Positions 3,001-16,048 of a stretch of DNA of 64,000 nt are shown here, one piece after another. Position 1 is the stretch's first letter. Each line of letters starts with the position of its first letter. This stretch comes from Eledone cirrhosa (lineage: Eukaryota), in the NCBI GenBank assembly GCA_964016885.1, contig OZ024744.1:115134001-115198000 (forward strand), read 5' to 3'. The notes under the pieces were generated by a model. That model saw nothing but the letters and a program-made list of their open reading frames with translations. It was not told where the DNA came from and did no database searches. The position numbers and the translations under genes were made by a program.

Positions 3001-4432
3001 GTGAGAGTGACAGCTACACAGTGACAGTGACAGCTATACAGTGACAGTGACAGCTACACAGTGACAGTGACAGCTATACAGTGACAGTGACAGCTACACA
3101 GTGACAGTGACAGCTACACAGTGACAGTGACAACTACACAGTGACAGTGACAGCTACACAGTGACAGTGACAGCTACACAGTGACAGTGACAGCTACACA
3201 GTGACAGAGACAGCTACACAGTGACAGTGACAGCTACACAGTGACAGCTATACAGTGACAGTGACAGCTACACAGTGACAGTGACAGCTAGACAGTGACA
3301 GTAACAGCTACACAGTGACAGTGACAGCTACACAGTGACAGTGACAGCTATACAGTGACAGTGACAGCTACACAGTGACAGTGACAGCTACACAGTGACA
3401 GTGACAGCTACACAGTGACAGTGACAGCTACACAGTGACAGTGACAGCTACACAGTGACAGTGACAGCTACACAGTGACAGTGACAGCTACACAGTGACA
3501 GCTATACAGTGACAGTAACAGCTACACAGTGACAGTGACAGCTATACAGTGACAGTGACAGCTACACAGTGACAGTGACAGCTACACAGTGACAGTAACA
3601 GCTACACAGTGACAGTGACAGCTACACAGTGACAGTAACAGCTACACGGTGACAGTAACAGCTACACAGTGACAGTGACAGCTATACAGTGACAGTGACA
3701 GCTACACAGTGACAGTGACAGCTATACAGTGACAGTGACAGCTACACAGTGACAGTGACAGCTACACAGTGACAGTGACAGCTACACAGTGACAGTGACA
3801 GCTACACAGTGACAGTGACAGCTACACAGTGACAGTAACAGCTACACAGTGACAGTAACAGCTACACAGTGACAGTGACAGCTAGACAGTGACAGTAACA
3901 GCTACACAGTGACAGTAACAGCTACACAGTGACAGTGACAGCTACACAGTGACAGCTATACAGTGACAGTGACAGCTACACAGTGACAGTAACAGCTACA
4001 CGGTGACAGTAACAGCTACACGGTGACAGTAACAGCTACACGGTGACAGTGACAGCTACACAGTGACAGTGACAGCTACACAGTGACAGTAACAGCTACA
4101 CGGTGACAGTAACAGCTACACGGTGACAGTAACAGCTACACAGTGACAGTGACAGCTACACAGTGACAGTAACAGCTACACAGTGACAGTGACAGCTACA
4201 CAGTGACAGTGACAGTGACAGCTACACAGTGACAGTAACAGCTACACAGTGACAGTAACAGCTACACAGTGACAGTAACAGCTACATGGTGACAGTAACA
4301 GCTACACAGTGACAGTAACAGCTACACAGTGACAGTGACAGCTACACAGTGACAGTGACAGCTACACAGTGACAGTAACAGCTACACAGTGACAGTAACA
4401 GCTACACAGTGACAGTGACAGCTACCCAGTGA
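1..4432. repeat. 20-bp minisatellite (GTGACAGTGACAGCTACACA)n, >=220 copies, runs off the left edge
   Basis: 20-bp period read directly, with G/A and C/T variants and occasional gain or loss of the 6-bp GTGACA subunit. Confidence 0.98.
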
Positions 4433-4978
4433 CCTGTATTATATGCCCAATCATGTGATTGTGACCAACAATTAAAATGGCAAATACACTAAGAACCTTT
4501 CAACTGATGTACTTAATCACATGAAAGTCATCAACCAACCAAATTACACTTTTAAAAAACAACAATTTGAGCCACAATTTTTAAGACAAATACAATAAGA
4601 ACTTTCGAACATGAACTGGTACAAAATTTATTGATTTATTCATGTGACAGTCATCAACCAATCAAATTACTTTAAATAAAAAAAGACAGCAATTCCAGCC
4701 AATCTTTTTGCATAAAACAGAAAGAACTTTTGAACACAAACCAGATGCAAGTCAGACCACAACAGAAACACAACCCTCCATCTCAATTTTACTTTTGAAA
4801 ATCATAAGAACTGTGAAACTGGTAAAGTAAATAAATAAATATTGGCAGTTCATTAAATGAAAATATGGCATCCTGTCTTTATGATCTTTCACACATATAT
4901 ATTAGTAATAATGAATACAAAGACCCAAAATCCAGAGAGGCCTCAATAATGGTTGTGTATATAGATATATATATATCC

Positions 4979-6550
4979 TCATCATCATCATCATTTTACG
5001 TCCGCTTTTCCCTGCCTATATATCTAGGGCGGGTAAAATTCCCGAGATCCATGGACGAGTCATCTCCAGCGGTCTCTGTCCCTCATTATCGCTGCCATGT
5101 CCTGCGTCTCCAAAGGACCTGTGTCTGTCCTTAGGGCATCAACATATGTCAACCTTCGTCTCGCTCTTATAGTATGTCCGTGTATGGGCTCACACAGGAC
5201 CACTGAGTGTAGTGCCAACTCTGGATGTCGGTGAGCATGTCCAGCTAACCTCAGTCTCCTCTGTATTACTTTCGAGCTGACTTTTGGGAGGCTCCCATAC
5301 AGCTCTGAGTTCTTCATCCTCAGTGTATACTGATTAATGTTCAGAGCCATCCTCAGCATTCTCGTGTAGCACCCATCCACTATCTGAGTGAGTTTCTTGG
5401 TCAGTGTCCAAGTCTCTGACCCGTACAGAAGCACAGACTCCACTACAGCAATGAAGAGGTGGATTTTCAGGTCTTTACGAAGGTCCGACACCGATCTCAA
5501 GCTGTGGCACGCCGCCCAGGCTTTGCTCTTCTTCTCAACCACATCATCTTCCGTATTCCCAATCTTTGCTCCCAAATACAGGAAGTCCTCAACCAATTCT
5601 AGCAGCCTCCCGCTTACATTAGTAATCTTCTCTGGCTTCTTAATATTCTCTACCACATACTTTGTCTTACTCTCATTCATTCTCAGCCCCTCACTCATCG
5701 ACACAGTCTCCACCTCCTACTTCAACTCCTCTGCCTCCTTCACTGTGTTTGTCACCAAAACTATGTCGTCAGCAAATTAAGCATCTGATATCTATTTAGC
5801 CTTAACTCTCCTGCTCTGAGCCAGTGTTACAGTAAAGCCAGAGTCAATAGTCCACTACGATGATAAAAAGGTAGGGAGCCAATGTATCTCCCTGGAGCAC
5901 TCCAGCCAGTATCTCAAAGAACTCTGTCATCCCATCAGGTATAATGACTTGGGCTCTGGTGTTGGTGTAGAGCAGTGATATCAGGTCCACTATCTTATTG
6001 GAGATTCCATAAGCCTGTAAGATCTTCATCAGGCAGTAACGGTCCACAGAATCAAAGGCCTTCCTAAAATCAATGAAAACCATGACTGCAGGAAGGCACT
6101 TTGCTCTAGCTCCCTCTAATATCCTCCTCAGCATCAGGATGTGACTGGTGGTTGATCTACCCTCTCTGAAGCCGTTCTGGTTGTCCCTGAGCTTCTTCTC
6201 CATCTCGGGCTGGATCCTGTTAAGAATCCTCCTGTTGAGGGTCTTTGCCACAAGTGACGTCAGTGAGATCCCCCTGTAGTTGTTGGTATTAGAGAGATCT
6301 CCCTTCTTTGGCACTGGGACGATGTTACTGATCCTCCACTGATTCGGGGTCAACCCCTTTCTCCAGTGCCTGGTTACAGAACTCCAGGATGATATCACCA
6401 AAATCACACCTCTTCATCACCTCTGATGCCACTCCATCTTCTCCATGAGCCTTGCCCTCCTTTATCCTCTTCTTGGCTTTCTGAAGCTCCTCTCTGGTGA
6501 AGGGTCCTGTCTCAATATCAGTTCCTCAAACAGCTGCCTGTTCTCCCCAG
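4979..6550 (-). mobile_element. 5'-truncated, decayed RTE-group LINE (reverse transcriptase to 3' tail)
   Basis: ORFs 5844-6407 (PKKGD..NYRGISL, QNGFREGRST, FIDFRKAFDSV, GVLQGDTLAPYLF) and 5060-5713 (YLGA, LLYGSETW, RRLRLAGH). The FADD catalytic motif near 5765-5777 is preceded by an in-frame stop. (GAT)n tail near 4980-4995. Confidence 0.93.
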
Positions 6551-6568
6551 TGTGTATATATATATACC

Positions 6569-6663
6569 TTAAAGCAAACAATTTTTGCTTTCTCCCTAAA
6601 GTGGGATCCTCTGAAACTCAGAAGATCCCACTTTAGGGTGAAAGTAGAAATTGTTTGCTTTAA
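6569..6663. ncRNA. ~95-bp palindrome made of two inverted hammerhead-like motifs (CAGANGA core)
   Basis: Minus arm: agttt CAGAGGA tccc-acttta-ggga GAA AGCAAA-aattg-TTTGCT T. Plus arm: CAGAAGA tccc-acttta-gggt GAA AGTAGA-aattg-TTTGCT T taact. Flanked by TA runs. Confidence 0.55.
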
Positions 6664-6711
6664 CTTTTAATCTGTGCTAATATTAAATTTATAAATAAAT
6701 ATATATATATA

Positions 6712-6913
6712 TGGAAAGTGATATATGTAAGAAGGTTAAACAATGCAAACTGGACAGTAAGATGAAGGCAAAGAAATAGTTACCTGTTTATCTTTGTTTA
6801 CCCCCCCCCCCTCCCACACACACACATAGATAAACAGGTAACTAACCTTTTCATTGCCTTCATCTTACCATCCAGTTTGCATTGTTTAACCTTATTACAT
6901 ATATCACTTTCCA
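6712..6913. repeat. ~82-bp imperfect inverted repeat around a C10/(CA)n spacer (foldback or MITE-like)
   Basis: tggaaagtgatatatgtaag...gttacctgtttatct (6712-6793) is the reverse complement of agataaacaggtaact...ttacatatatcactttcca (6828-6913). Confidence 0.88.
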
Positions 6914-7171
6914 CATTTTATTATATACTAGCAGAATGGCCCGGCGTTGTTCAGGTTTCTGAAAATAGATTGGCATGTTTATCCCTCCTTTCTGAAACAG
7001 TACAGAGAAGTACGGAATACCTTGGCCTGGAGATGGTGCTTATAAAAGAAATTTGTCGTAGATTACCAGGGGTTTAACTTAATTGGGTGTCTGAGAGTAA
7101 AATGTTCAACCCACGAAAGCCAAGAAGATAGGGTTAAGTAAAAAGGCATTCGACAAACCAAACATGTATTT

Positions 7172-7676
7172 GTTGTGCTATGGTACAATGAAAGCAATAG
7201 TTACAGAGCAGTAAGTATGTGGGACTGCAGTGGTGGAGAGTGGTGTGGTCTTACTGTTGTGCTATGGTACAATGAAAGCAATAGTTACAGAGCAGTAAGT
7301 ATGTGGGACTGCAGAGGTGGAGAGTGGTGTGGTCTTACTGTTATGCTATGGTACAATGAAAGCAATAGTTACAGAGCAGTAAGTATGTGGGACTGCAGTG
7401 GTGGAGAGTGGTGTGGTCTTACTGTTGTGCTATGGTACAATGAAAGCAATAGTTACAGAGCAGTAAGTATGTGGGACTGCAGTGGTGGAGAGTGGTGTGG
7501 TCTTACTGTTGTGCTATGGTACAATGAAAGCAATAGTTACAGAGCAGTAAGTATGTGGGACTGCAGTGGTGGAGAGTGGTGTGGTCTTACTGTTGTGCTA
7601 TGGTACAATGAAAGCAATAGTTACAGAGCAGTAAGTATGTGGGACTGCAGAGGTGGAGAGTGGTGTGGTCTTACTC
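7172..7676. repeat. 84-bp minisatellite, 6 near-identical copies, inside the Helitron
   Basis: Unit gttgtgctatggtacaatgaaagc...gtggtcttact; 28-aa periodicity in ORF 7175-7723. Confidence 0.97.
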
Positions 7677-7919
7677 CTTTCAATGTTTCATTGTATGTTC
7701 ACCAATTGATGCAGAAGTCCTAATGAAAAGTGAAGTCGCCTTCGGTGAATAGGCAAATCATTTTCCATTACGATTTTTCAAAAGCATGTAATTGCGTTCC
7801 CCCTCTTTTTTGTTGTTTTTGCTGCTGTTTATATTTTGTTATTGTGTATGCAAAAATATCTGTACACAAATATATAATTATATATATATATATATATATA
7901 TATTAAAACAACAGATTAA

Positions 7920-7970
7920 AGTTTAAGTGAAGAATCGCTGCTTTCACCCTTAACGGGGTCTTCTGAAACT
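7920..7970 (-). ncRNA. Type I hammerhead-like motif with CAGAAGA core
   Basis: Minus strand: agttt CAGAAGA cccc-gttaa-gggt GAA AG...CT T aaact. Stem I agttt/aaact is perfect. Lies between (TA)n runs at ~7880 and ~8030. Confidence 0.5.
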
Positions 7971-8021
7971 AAAAAAAATTAATCTGTGAACGCAGAAGTA
8001 AATATTTCGAAAAACGTTACA

Positions 8022-8064
<43 letters not shown>

Positions 8065-8513
8065 GATAGCGTCATAATGTCGTAATCCAGACAGATATTA
8101 TAAGGGCGCGACGTTACCAGGGCCTAATGAGGTCCCTAGAGCATTGAAAATTTGAAATTTTTTTTGCTCACATGACTAGAAATATTACATGTGTAAAGTT
8201 TGAAAAAAATCGGTTGGGTGGTTCTCAAGTTTTAGGGAGTCAGACAGACAGACAGACAGACAAACATTCTCTGTTTTAGATATATAGATTATATATATAT
8301 ATATATATACAGAGAGAGAGAGGGTAACAATATATCGTTAAAGGTAATCCGATAAGAGTTTGTGAAAACTACTTATGATGGATAGTTTAAGCGTACGGTG
8401 CTGTGTGACTCAACAAGAGGTTTACGTGGGTGACGAGTAAATGACTTCATTTGTCAGACTGCAAATAAATCTCCTTGTTTATAATGTTGACCATGTTATT
8501 CTTCACTTTTTAT

Positions 8514-8672
8514 ATCATCATCATCATCATGATCATCATTTTACGTCCACTTTTTCCTGCTTGCAAGGGTGGGACAGGAACTGTTTCTGGCTGGATTTCT
8601 ACAGCTGGATGCCCTTCCTAACACCAACCTCATTTACAGTGAGTGCTGGGTGCTTTTTTTTCTGTGGCACCT
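8514..8672 (-). mobile_element. RTE-type 3' tail fragment
   Basis: (CAT)n then ...tacagctggatgcccttcctaacaccaacctcatttacagtgagtgctgggtgc, the reverse complement of the RTE 3' UTR at ~54779-54835 in this window. Confidence 0.8.
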
Positions 8673-8699
8673 CCACGACCACTTTGCATCATCTCATTT

Positions 8700-8992
<293 letters not shown>

Positions 8993-9250
8993 GGGACCCC
9001 TTTTGGTCATGATTTGCAAACAGAGACAATGAACATTAAATTATGATGATGATAACCATGGATTTCCATCTGGGAAATTCCTCTCCAATGCATAAACCTC
9101 TCCGAGTTGTTTTGTGGGAGTCCATCATTTACCCATACCAGACTCATCTCTCCATGCACCATAAATACAATACAACGTTACACTTTTCTTTCATTTTAAA
9201 CTATAAAGTAAATGATATCCAGAACTTGTTTGAGATTAAATATATCTTAC

Positions 9251-9342
9251 CAATAAAGAACTGCCACTGAGAAATGCTGCCAAATTATTCCAGGCCAAGT
9301 CAATATCTTTTAGTAGTGTCTCTAGACGTTCATTTGTTAACA
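9251..9342 (-). CDS. SYNRG: Synergin gamma internal exon (92 bp, phase 1 to 0)
   Basis: ttctag|...|gtaaga; encodes (V)LTNERLETLLKDIDLAWNNLAAFLSGSSLL, matching the remembered vertebrate SYNRG segment SEKLQQLLKDIDKVWNNLIGFMS. Not in the ORF track. Confidence 0.92.
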
Positions 9343-9582
9343 CTAGAATAAAAAAGAATGTATTGAAATGTAGCATTAAATATAAGAATGTTTACAGTAT
9401 CTTTACTAGTGTGCAAATAGTTGTGAAAATTTACAATATAAGTGTAAAGACTTCAGTTTTTTATGTGATACAGTCATAATGTTGTCTTATATATTTCATA
9501 TATTTCTTTAGTTGTTAGAAGTAAGAGTTATGTGGGAGCTCTCTGTAGTAACACTTATTTCTGAGTCCATCTATATACTGTG

Positions 9583-9800
9583 TGGGGTAGGTTCTCCTCC
9601 TTCATCTCATACTCTTTGTTAAGTACCCCAGTGTTATTGGGGGCAGGTCCTCCTCCTTCATCTCATACTCTTTGTTAAGTACCCCAGTGTTGTTGGGGGC
9701 AGGTCCTCCTCCTTCATCTCATACTCTCTGTTAAGTACCCCAGTGTTATTGGGGGCAGGTCCTCCTCCTTCATCTCATACTCTCTGTTAAGCAACCAAGT
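9583..9800. repeat. 56-bp minisatellite, ~4 copies
   Basis: Unit cctcctccttcatctcatactctttgttaagtaccccagtgttattgggggcaggt. Confidence 0.93.
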
Positions 9801-9999
9801 GTGTTAAGGGCTGACAAATGTATATTTAATGCAATCATACTTTTTAAAATTTTTTTTTCTTTCTGTTTCTTCTCTGCTGTAGTAAAAGTCTGTCGGTGAT
9901 CTTCATCCAACATTTCATCTTCATCATCTCTAATGGATGGAGTGGCATTTTGAGGGGGAATTTTGACTTTGTGATTGAGCTTCTATAGTAAAACAGTAT

Positions 10000-10190
10000 T
10001 AGGATCTTTCGGCCATCCTCTACTGTAGCTTCCTTCCACTGGGATTTCTTGGCACTTCTTCACCAAACAATCATCATCACATGTCCATACCAGAGAGGTC
10101 TTCTCTTCTGCACACTACAACTGATTCTTCTTATGAACAGTTTGTGTCACAGATTCCCGTTTCACTGTTCATGACACAAATATACTAGCT
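10000..10190 (-). mobile_element. Decayed RTE RT C-terminal fragment
   Basis: Minus strand reads ...ISCSVQKRRPLWYGHV..., the RRLxWxGHV motif of RTE reverse transcriptases. Collinear with the adjacent 96-bp array. Confidence 0.65.
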
Positions 10191-11308
10191 TCATTTCTTT
10201 CCAGTCTTTATATAACCTCTACATTAACTACCCATGTCTTACTACCATGTAACATTACATCAGATGTCCATTGAAACATGCTAGCTTCATTTCTCTCCAG
10301 TCTCTATATAACCTCTACAGTAACAACCCATGTCTCATTACTATGTAACATTACATCAGATATCCATTGAAACATGTTAGCTTCATTTCTCTCCAGTCTC
10401 TATATAACCTCTACAGTAACAACCCATATCTCACTACCATGTAACACTACATCAAATGTCCATTGAAACATGTTAGCTTCATTTCTCTCCAGTCCATATA
10501 ACCTCTACATTAACTACCCATGTCTCACTACCATGTAATATTAGATCAGATGTCCATTGAAACATGCTAGCTTCATGTCTCTCTAGTCTCTATATAACCT
10601 CTACATTAACTACCCATGTCACACTACGATGTAACATTACATCAGATGTCCATTGAAACATGCTAGCTTCATGTCTCTCCAGTCTCTGTATAACCTCTAC
10701 ATTAACTACCTCTGCCTCACTACCATGTAACACTACATCGGATGACCATGTAACATGCTAGCTTCATTTCTCTCCAGTCTCTATATAACCTCTACATTAA
10801 CTACCCATGTCTCACCACCATGTAACATTACATCAGATGTCCATTGAAACATGCTAGCTTCATGTCTCTCCAGTCTCTATATAACCTCTACATTAACTAC
10901 CATGTCTCACTACCATGTAACACTACATCGGATGACCATGTAACATGCTAGCTTCATTTCTCTCCAGTCTCTATATAACCTCTACATTAACTACCCATAT
11001 TTCACTACCATGTAACATTACATCAGATGTCCATTGTAACATGCTAGCTTCATGTCTCTCCAGTCTCTATATAACCTTTACATTAACTACCATGTCTCAC
11101 TACCATGTAACACTACATCGGATGACCATGTAACATGTTAGCTTCATGTCTCTCCAGTCTCTATATAACCTCTACATTAACTACCATGTCTCACTGCCAT
11201 GTAACACTACATCGGATGACCATGTAACATGCTAGCTTCATTTCTCTCCAGTCTCTATATAACCTCTACATTAACTACCCATGTCTCACTACCATGTAAT
11301 GTTACATA
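10184..11308 (-). repeat. 95-96-bp minisatellite (~12 copies) derived from RTE RT coding sequence
   Basis: Unit translates on the minus strand as MLHGSETWVVNVEVI*RLERNEASM; compare AMLHSREIWALSVEDLCRLERNKACM in the RTE at 54356-54721. Confidence 0.9.
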
Positions 11309-13796: not shown

Positions 13797-13844
13797 AATC
13801 GTGGATACACATTTCAAACTGAACTGGTTCTCATCAGCACAATC
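13797..13844 (-). ncRNA. Minimal type I hammerhead ribozyme (canonical core)
   Basis: Minus strand: gattgtg CTGATGA gaac-cagttca-gttt GAA AT-gtgt-AT C cacgatt. Stem I is 7 bp (2 G:U), stem II 4 bp, stem III 2 bp, cleavage triplet AUC. Confidence 0.7.
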
Positions 13845-14113: not shown

Positions 14114-15189
14114 GAATATATGAGAGAGATCAACACAGATACAAGTACACATGTGTTCCAATTACAAATGACCAAGTTAGCTAGGTTGAAAAAATACTAA
14201 CTTAAAACAATATGGTTTGCCTGACTCAATTTAAAGTAATAAATCAATAAAAATAACAAACCTATATCGGGCAACAGCCTTTGATACCCGGACAGACCTA
14301 AATCTGTTTTGCAAGAATTATTAACTGAAGGCAACAATTCCTGTGCTCTTCTGCGGGTATCCAGGAAATTCATACCTTTCACTTCATAGGATCTAAGAAG
14401 ACTGAACGATATGCTGATATAAAAGCACATGTCGCAGCACCTAGTGCATCTCAAACTCATGCCACTAAAAATAGCAGCCAGGTTTATGAGACTAAAGTTA
14501 GCTCTACACAAGTATACATGTGTTCCAATTGCAAATGACCAAGTTAGTTAGGCTGAAAAAATACTAATTTAAAACAATATGGTTTGTCTGACTTGATTTA
14601 AATCAATAAAAATAACAAACCTATATCGGGTAATAGCCTTGATACCTGGACAGACATACTTATATCTGTGTTCATCCCTCTCATATATTCAATTATATTA
14701 CACGGCTCGGAAAGATTCCCTTCTTTGAGCTATTTAATTGTAAAAGACTATTTTGAGTTTCTAACTCATTCTATGATATTCTCGGCTCCTTCACGTAGAG
14801 CTAACTTTAGTCTCATAAACCTGGCTGCTATTTTTAGTGGCATGAGTATGAGACGCACTAGGCGCTGCGACATGTGCTTTTATATCAACATGTCGTTCAG
14901 TCTTCTTAGATCCTATGAAGTGAAAGGTATGAATTTCCTGGATCCCCGCAGAAGAGCACAGGAATTGTTGCCTTCAGTTAATAATTCTTGCAAAACAGAT
15001 TTAGGTCTGTCCGGGTATCAAAGGCTGTTGCCCGATATAGGTTTGGTATTTTTATTGATTTATTACTTTAAATTGAGTCAGGCAAACCATATTGTTTTAA
15101 GTTAGTATTTTTTCAACCTAGCTAACTTGGTCATTTGCAATTGGAACACATGTGTACTTGTATCTGTGTACATCCCTCTCTTTGAGCTA

Positions 15190-15940: not shown

Positions 15941-16042
15941 ATATAGATGAGATTCTACAGGACTAGAACTGTTTCATTCATTAGAAATCAGATTCCTGAT
16001 GATTTCTAATGAATGAAACAGTTCTAGTCCTGTAGAATCTCA

Positions 16043-16048
<6 letters not shown>
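15941..16048. repeat. ~49-bp-stem palindrome containing a decayed hammerhead core
   Basis: tatagatgagattctacaggactagaactgtttcattcattagaaatca and its reverse complement; the plus strand contains CTGATGA-tttctaatgaat-GAAAC. Adjacent to (TA)n. Confidence 0.85.

Follow-up and report, generated by a model that had tools for sequence, protein, structure and literature searches.

A putative hammerhead ribozyme variant with A at core position 4 in a high-copy Penelope-like element

Three hammerhead-like motifs in the 64,000-nt stretch of DNA analysed here (the window) are best explained as broken 3′ ends of a high-copy Penelope-like element, whose intact motif, with A in place of U at position 4 of the hammerhead core (A4), would be a slow, possibly protein-assisted, self-cleaving ribozyme under selection; judging from sequence comparison, we give this reading as a whole a slightly better than even chance. 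A recently active family with intact ORFs has kept a substitution in the conserved CUGA turn over a long history, with the remainder of the core preserved. Should the A4 motif cut, natural hammerheads tolerate more in their core than current descriptors allow, and elements scored hammerhead-less deserve a rescan with position 4 left free; should it not cut, the fold has some noncatalytic role. The function of hammerheads in Penelope-like elements has been called unclear (Craig et al. 2021, PMC8557442), and activity of the A4 motif would help show what they do for these elements.

Three broken copies in the window

A window scan in which core position 4 was left free recovered three CAGA[A/G]GA...GAAA cores with stem II, their C3 at 6613 (minus strand), 6619 (plus) and 7965 (minus), where the original prediction had placed them. 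The motifs and the repeats to which they belong are as follows.

6567..6618, minus strand: motif 1, an inverted, truncated older-subfamily hammerhead (80% to the element 3′ end), with the stem I 5′ strand at 6618-6614, C3 at 6613 and stems II and III; the stem I 3′ strand is lost into (TA)n
6619..6675, plus strand: motif 2, an older-subfamily hammerhead (80% to the element 3′ end), from C3 (6619) to the 3′ strand of distal stem I
6569..6663, no strand assigned: fold-back joining motifs 1 and 2 head to head (−65.5 kcal/mol)
6676..6692, plus strand: tail of the element downstream of motif 2, terminating in (TA)n; 6618-6692 matches the element 3′ end
7911..7987, minus strand: motif 3, a hammerhead of the young subfamily, complete with stems I-III, bulge and distal stem I
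7894..8021, minus strand: 5′-truncated 3′ end of a Penelope-like element, flanked by (TA)n runs, 87.5% identical to the L121 unit across 128 nt
4903..4973, minus strand: piece of element tail, oriented like motif 1 and lying on the far side of a LINE-like insertion (76% over 72 nt)
6927..8289, no strand assigned: non-autonomous host repeat with motif 3 as passenger, its flanks common to most of loci L002-L030

The pairings previously described for motif 1 (tccc/ggga and AGCAAA/TTTGCT) and for motif 3 (agttt/aaact and ccc/ggg) are present, the stem I 3′ strand of motif 1 is broken as claimed, and GAAAG lies opposite a CUU triplet in 3/3 motifs. The downstream actttaatctgt, said to be common to all three, is found at motifs 2 and 3; motif 1 instead enters (TA)n at 6567. 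Motif 2 does hold a G:U pair, at 15.5, which is the subfamily consensus state rather than a change, and its stem I 5′ strand, which is missing because the inverted arm occupies that place, had gone unmentioned, as had a distal stem I of 9 bp, set off by a bulge of 7-8 nt. Motif 1 departs from its subfamily consensus in its perfect stem III and in U-A at 10.1/11.1 (consensus U10.1.U11.1). Beyond what had been described, motif 3 carries mutations in stem III, which is mismatched, and at position 10.1, where U is replaced by C. The predicted cuts would fall at 6660/6661 in motif 2 and at 7925/7924 in motif 3.

Positions 6569-6663 form a single hairpin (z = −15 on folding), and there are therefore two independent loci rather than three, as the original prediction had recognized. 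This fold-back is a 5′ inversion typical of Penelope-like insertions, for which such head-to-head pairs are known (PMC4209133; PMC8557442), and it is predicted to sequester motifs 1 and 2 in any transcript. Every window copy is broken, motif 1 lacking the stem I 3′ strand, motif 2 the 5′ strand and motif 3 a matched stem III; the three-helix arrangement with open stem I is absent in motifs 1 and 2. To judge by these defects, the three copies are probably inactive. The window motifs are ordinary decayed repeat ends, and the retained pairing once taken as a sign of selection is, in these copies, inherited and decaying.

The same fold-back junction recurs at L032, L034, L036, L041, L045 and L053, and junctions at the stem I/core boundary are seen repeatedly at independent loci, namely window positions 6614-6618, the six just named, and L052, L058 and L453-L458. 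In one type of junction, CTGAAGA is restored on one of the arms and can be mistaken for a U4 revertant. Next to motif 2, 6742-6883 forms another imperfect palindrome, some 140 nt long and with a (C)n(AC)n loop.

A Penelope-like element carries the motif

The full element (L121) was traced from pairs of motif matches 3.26 kb apart. Its 3.26-kb unit comprises, in order, the motif, a 160-nt tail, ATG, ORF, a long 3′ region, a second motif and (TA)n, so that the motif lies in both pseudo-LTRs; cleavage is predicted 158 nt ahead of the ATG. The 709-aa ORF encodes an RT with a C-terminal GIY-YIG domain and contains the motifs RWR (RW[KR] in relatives), DKT, CNCRNRADC, CDLC and CKH. A Pfam search of this ORF assigned no family, and its nearest proteins, mostly unnamed, are 38-57% identical. 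The element shows pseudo-LTR tandem structure, 5′ inversions, a tail and (TA)n targets; with Hydra-clade motifs in its protein, it is classified by sequence as a Penelope-like retrotransposon, its placement coming from motifs rather than an RT tree. The anatomy agrees with one of the two kinds of carrier that the original prediction had named as known. Hydra-clade elements, whose motif list also includes RWK, have the same C-terminal GIY-YIG, DKT, CxCX5C, CxxC and CxH motifs and (TA)n targets, and the layout of Hydra-1_aJap is very similar (PMC8557442).

Two other assignments were considered and rejected. Naiad elements have (TA)n targets and do not carry canonical hammerheads (Craig et al. 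2021, PMC8557442), but the endonuclease motifs here are C-terminal, not N-terminal. A non-LTR retrozyme would consist of short noncoding units in head-to-tail tandem, every unit bearing a hammerhead, and the copies found are scattered 3′ ends from a 3.26-kb element with coding capacity.

Among 35 distinct ORF-bearing copies, a sample biased to intact elements because it was drawn from the top protein matches, 18 carry the motif at both ends and 14 have an open ORF of at least 708 aa. In the older subfamilies, from which window motifs 1 and 2 derive, copies differ by 11-14% from their own consensus and the ORF remnants upstream of the motif are 43-68% identical to the young ORF. A first metagenome scan and a viral scan found no relative, and the few contigs of organism B are too thin a basis for a second species. 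Hydra-type elements with hammerheads were seen in 19 contigs of bacterial genome assemblies (L344-L362), which are probably host-animal contamination.

Other repeats are interleaved with the element. The host repeat of motif 3 (6927-8289), putatively Helitron/Helentron-like, has an internal 84-bp tandem array (7171-7675) and dominates the 30 best matches of the motif; this non-autonomous repeat captured the element 3′ end and spread with it (L002-L030). In a related host, a second capture is cut exactly after G5 (11 in the first 100 junction matches; L423, L437, L438, L450, L451). A LINE-like element, presumably RTE-type, is inserted at (TA)n beside motif 1 (5020-6545, minus strand; RVT_1 match at 5844-6410, E 7.5e-23), and its family also abuts the element tail in L121.

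Homology to Hydra-clade hammerheads

We compared the motif with 96 loci encoding relatives in other organisms, which are not independent families. At threshold, 68/96 had a match, and 84 of the 86 matches had U4; a relaxed look added nine loci, giving 77/96 with a hammerhead, all U4, and 19 with none, many of these having short 3′ flanks. The lone A4 match (L267:379) was discarded: it lies inside the ORF of a locus that has a U4 hammerhead at 2318, and one such match arose in 3 × 96 shuffles. Upstream of a related ORF, at L316:2168, lies a hammerhead-like motif whose position 4 is C.

A covariance model built solely from 32 U4 relatives ranks the A4 motif first at both pseudo-LTRs of L143 and L149 (23.9 bits, E 2.5e-4). 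In the window the same model gives motif 3 19.9 bits (E 0.003) and motif 2 9.5 bits, which is not significant, and does not find motif 1. These scores argue that the A4 motif is homologous to the hammerheads of the Hydra clade, in which canonical hammerheads are reported to be universal (Craig et al. 2021, PMC8557442), and uphold the hammerhead identity originally proposed. Hydra-clade hammerheads are likewise type I, near the 3′ end and frequently U10.1.U11.1 (PMC8557442); in our set the latter is the commonest state (29/44 relatives). C15.2-G16.2, present in 44/44 relatives, is G15.2-C16.2 here, both bases having changed without loss of the pair, and the stem III region spans 17 nt versus 9-10 nt in 43/44 relatives. 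The stems covary among the relatives, which had, however, been chosen for pairing. The stem covariation called for as a check, the lack of which had been named as an outcome that would refute the original prediction, is seen only in comparison with these relatives, none of the three subfamily consensuses of the family itself showing a compensatory stem change.

It is hardly credible that the likeness arose by chance in an AT-rich repeat end with no hammerhead ancestry. Such an origin would agree with a folding z-score that is not significant (−0.79) and with the lack of any Rfam hammerhead match in window 4000-11000 or in L143. Under closer inspection, the Rfam miss is not due to A4, because canonical relatives are missed too (0 in eight U4 Hydra loci). 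The motif lies where Hydra elements carry their hammerhead, shares their GAT..TGAAA signature and is the top match of the independent U4-only model at both pseudo-LTRs, a result that largely refutes a chance origin. The original expectation that the variant would escape standard searches therefore holds in part: descriptors demanding CUGANGA or CYGANGA, as in the methods of Craig et al. 2021 (PMC8557442) and Perreault et al. 2011 (PMC3088659) and in PMC13481778, skip A4, but A4 is not what causes the Rfam miss.

Canonical U4 hammerhead-like cores with paired stems also occur in other repeat families of the window, at 13837 (minus), 15443 (minus) and 15996 (plus), the last within a palindrome (15946-16044) and scoring 33.9 bits with the Hydra model.

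A4 is fixed across the family

An exact search of the genome with a 35-place pattern returned 21,394 matches, 21,160 (98.9%) with A4 and 234 with C, G or T, compared with 0 for the reversed pattern, so the motif is not a chance one. The family consensus is not U4, and the family-level variant suggested earlier is real; because of A4, we file the motif as a variant rather than a canonical type I hammerhead. Both window motif types are high-copy, with about 2,200-2,300 first-look candidates each. We considered whether this abundance was an artefact of passenger copies, but only 2/30 unselected loci (L091-L120) clearly share the host repeat of motif 3, and the match count is therefore not owed to it.

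Searches with P0001 and P0003 returned the young family only. In the older subfamilies, the first 100 of 219 matches, counted by eye, have 88 A, 7 T, 3 G and 2 C at position 4. A basal U4 subfamily was looked for among these and not found: six of the seven T4 copies are fold-back junctions in which the inverted arm supplies the T, and the seventh resembles an isolated reversion. When loci were sampled by the tail alone, downstream of the cut site, which avoids motif circularity for the core, the 17 readable of 30 loci had 15 A and 2 T, with the other core positions intact. A fourth subfamily shows A4 in 3/5 rows reaching the position.

A4 is thus family-wide and fixed in all subfamilies seen. 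Comparison with the relatives indicates that it is derived, since all 77 related loci showing a hammerhead have U4, and we infer that it arose once, before the subfamilies split.

Stems and core are conserved within the family without covarying

Apart from U4, the core positions of a type I hammerhead are present: C3, G5, A6, G8, A9, G12, A13, A14, A15.1-U16.1 and H17 occur in order in all three subfamily consensuses and in L143. Intact copies have three helices (5 + 9, 3 and 5 bp) with stem I open; the G10.1-C11.1 pair is absent, with U.U in its place. The recurring types of loop II start with G and end with A, ends that may be tied to the known tertiary contact between loop II and stem I.

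The three consensuses were built from 17, 12 and 15 copies, the older two resting on 12 and 15 decayed copies and the older A7 consensus being biased also to the CpG-decayed loop II of the window itself. Across them, 56/58 stem and core columns are unchanged, as against 10/21 in the loops and 87/158 in the flanks (53/111 upstream, 34/47 on the 3′ side of the motif). One of the two changed stem/core columns is position 7; the other is an indel of one base in the internal loop. Stems and core differ from the loops and from the upstream flank with Fisher p of 2e-6 and 4e-10, tests that are partly circular because most copies were gathered by core and stem motifs. The pattern in stems and core is one of conservation, not covariation.

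This pattern bears on whether the motif is an unselected relic, in which drift fixed A4 in a master copy and the subfamilies resemble each other because little time has passed. The lack of covariation in the family, the fairly conserved sequence 3′ of the motif and the ascertainment of copies by motif similarity are all in keeping with such drift. What makes it very unlikely, in our view, is that the changes fell in the loops and the upstream flank rather than in stems and core, even allowing for the partial circularity of the tests, and that the ORF remnants have diverged so far.

Cleavage and its alternatives

We favour slow self-cleavage by the intact A4 motif. The longer stem III, the 9-bp distal stem I and G15.2-C16.2 would let a single copy fold without a dimer partner, and this rebuilt periphery may offset a core weakened by A4, U10.1.U11.1 and the CUU triplet. 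A slowly cutting motif would reduce tandem or read-through transcripts to unit length and leave most RNA uncut to serve as insertion template. Counting for this reading are the stems and other core positions that stayed unchanged while the loops and position 7 turned over, and also precedent: a viroid U4C variant keeps enough activity in vivo, compensation by peripheral contacts having been proposed (Perreault et al. 2011, PMC3088659), Penelope-type hammerheads are slow and a family-level core variant, U3-A8, is known among them (Cervera and De la Pena 2014, PMC4209133), and the PAc Poseidon hammerhead is protein-assisted (Frangieh et al. 2024, PMC11167929).

Several observations count against it. 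The hammerhead fold is not the predicted minimum, lying 2.1 kcal/mol above it (−13.0 vs −15.1 kcal/mol); there is no compensatory change inside the family; and full-length copies without the 5′ motif have scattered start points. U4 mutants are weak: from a deep scan of a type III hammerhead, Roberts 2023 describes all single mutants of the CUGA turn as low in activity, with no rescue by a second mutation except in the C3-G8 swap. Insertion 5′ junctions show no excess at the predicted cut site (384, compared with 690 at a control position 26 nt upstream of it; 30/30 and 27/30 of those inspected were true junctions). However, a missing peak would be expected even of an active motif, because hammerheads of these elements work slowly or with help from protein, and in the one system studied in vitro it is mainly uncut RNA that serves as template.

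A rival reading is that A4 killed catalysis and that the three-way fold is kept solely as a binding or positioning signal for the element protein, in RNP assembly, the start of reverse transcription or endonuclease recognition. This we consider unlikely, though it deserves serious attention. In the Poseidon element, catalytic mutants of the hammerhead left insertion in vitro unaffected, uncut RNA being the main template (PMC11167929), and the weakness of U4 mutants (Roberts 2023), the lack of a junction excess and the spread of the family to >21,000 copies with A4 would all sit well with a dead fold. Yet a scaffold alone has no obvious need for G5, G8 and G12, and the other catalytic-core positions are unchanged across subfamilies, whereas the free position 7 changed.

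A further explanation, compatible with slow cleavage, is that A4 is held because C3-A4-G5 serves as a 3′ splice acceptor (a pyrimidine-rich bulge, then TTTCAG|A), and we rate it as rather improbable. A 5′-UTR intron would then end inside the ribozyme; unspliced RNA would keep the motif, and spliced mRNA would lose the 5′ half of the core and so be unable to cut itself. All subfamilies have a sequence that can be read as an acceptor, conserved donor-like GTAAG sites are present at 494 and 855 nt upstream (GTAAGT in 34 of 36 counted at the distal site), and the Penelope intron of D. virilis ends at the 5′ end of helix I (PMC4209133). Against this, none of the first 100 of 708 junction matches carries the exon end of either donor, and no GT..AG joint to the site appears among the joints listed for two contig sets; both genomic tests are weak because Penelope-like elements keep introns in their genomic copies. 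A second AG 7 nt upstream could be the real acceptor, and a YAG just before C3 is no more than mildly enriched in the U4 relatives (20/65, with 15, 15 and 8 in neighbouring windows).

It is tempting to join the two functions, with a working A4 hammerhead, expected from mutagenesis to be crippled but rescued by a rebuilt periphery, whose same A is the acceptor of a 5′-UTR intron, the spliced RNA being translated and the unspliced RNA trimmed or copied into the genome. Splicing and self-cleavage would then be alternative fates of one RNA, the spliced form losing half of the ribozyme, but we regard this combination as a long shot.

Relation to known hammerheads

Every hammerhead listed for Hydra elements in File S2 of Craig et al. 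2021 (PMC8557442) has U4, and none of the listed motifs, including Hydra-1_oBim, equals the present sequence; the present family differs in A4, G15.2-C16.2, a longer stem III and its 3.26-kb unit. The natural core variants of Perreault et al. 2011 (PMC3088659) offer a parallel in their rare core changes with low activity and their acceptance of U10.1-U11.1. The text of that work names U4C, U3-A8, A6C, insertions and U15.1-A16.1, not U4A, and its variants are rare or single, whereas A4 is fixed in >21,000 copies here. With the minimal hammerheads of Cervera and De la Pena 2014 (PMC4209133), which are low in activity, the motif shares its location in pseudo-LTRs, scattered single copies and opposite-strand pairs, but they have little or no helix III and need dimers, in contrast to the 5-bp stem III and distal stem I found here. 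The PAc hammerhead (PMC11167929) also lies in a pseudo-LTR near the ORF start, and no RNA ends were seen at the PAc cut site; it belongs to another clade, was tested with canonical C3/G8 and cuts inside the ORF. In the literature covered, which took in few subscription papers, we found no natural U4A hammerhead and no account of the present family; an earlier description is possible.

Other features of the window

Two further structures stand out in the window. Between (TA)n runs at 14122-15180 lies an inverted repeat with 386-nt arms, 97% complementary, which may be another 5′-inverted insertion. From about 20160 to 50800, a 30-kb array of a 45-nt unit, with about 600 overlapping copies listed, shows a strong strand skew.
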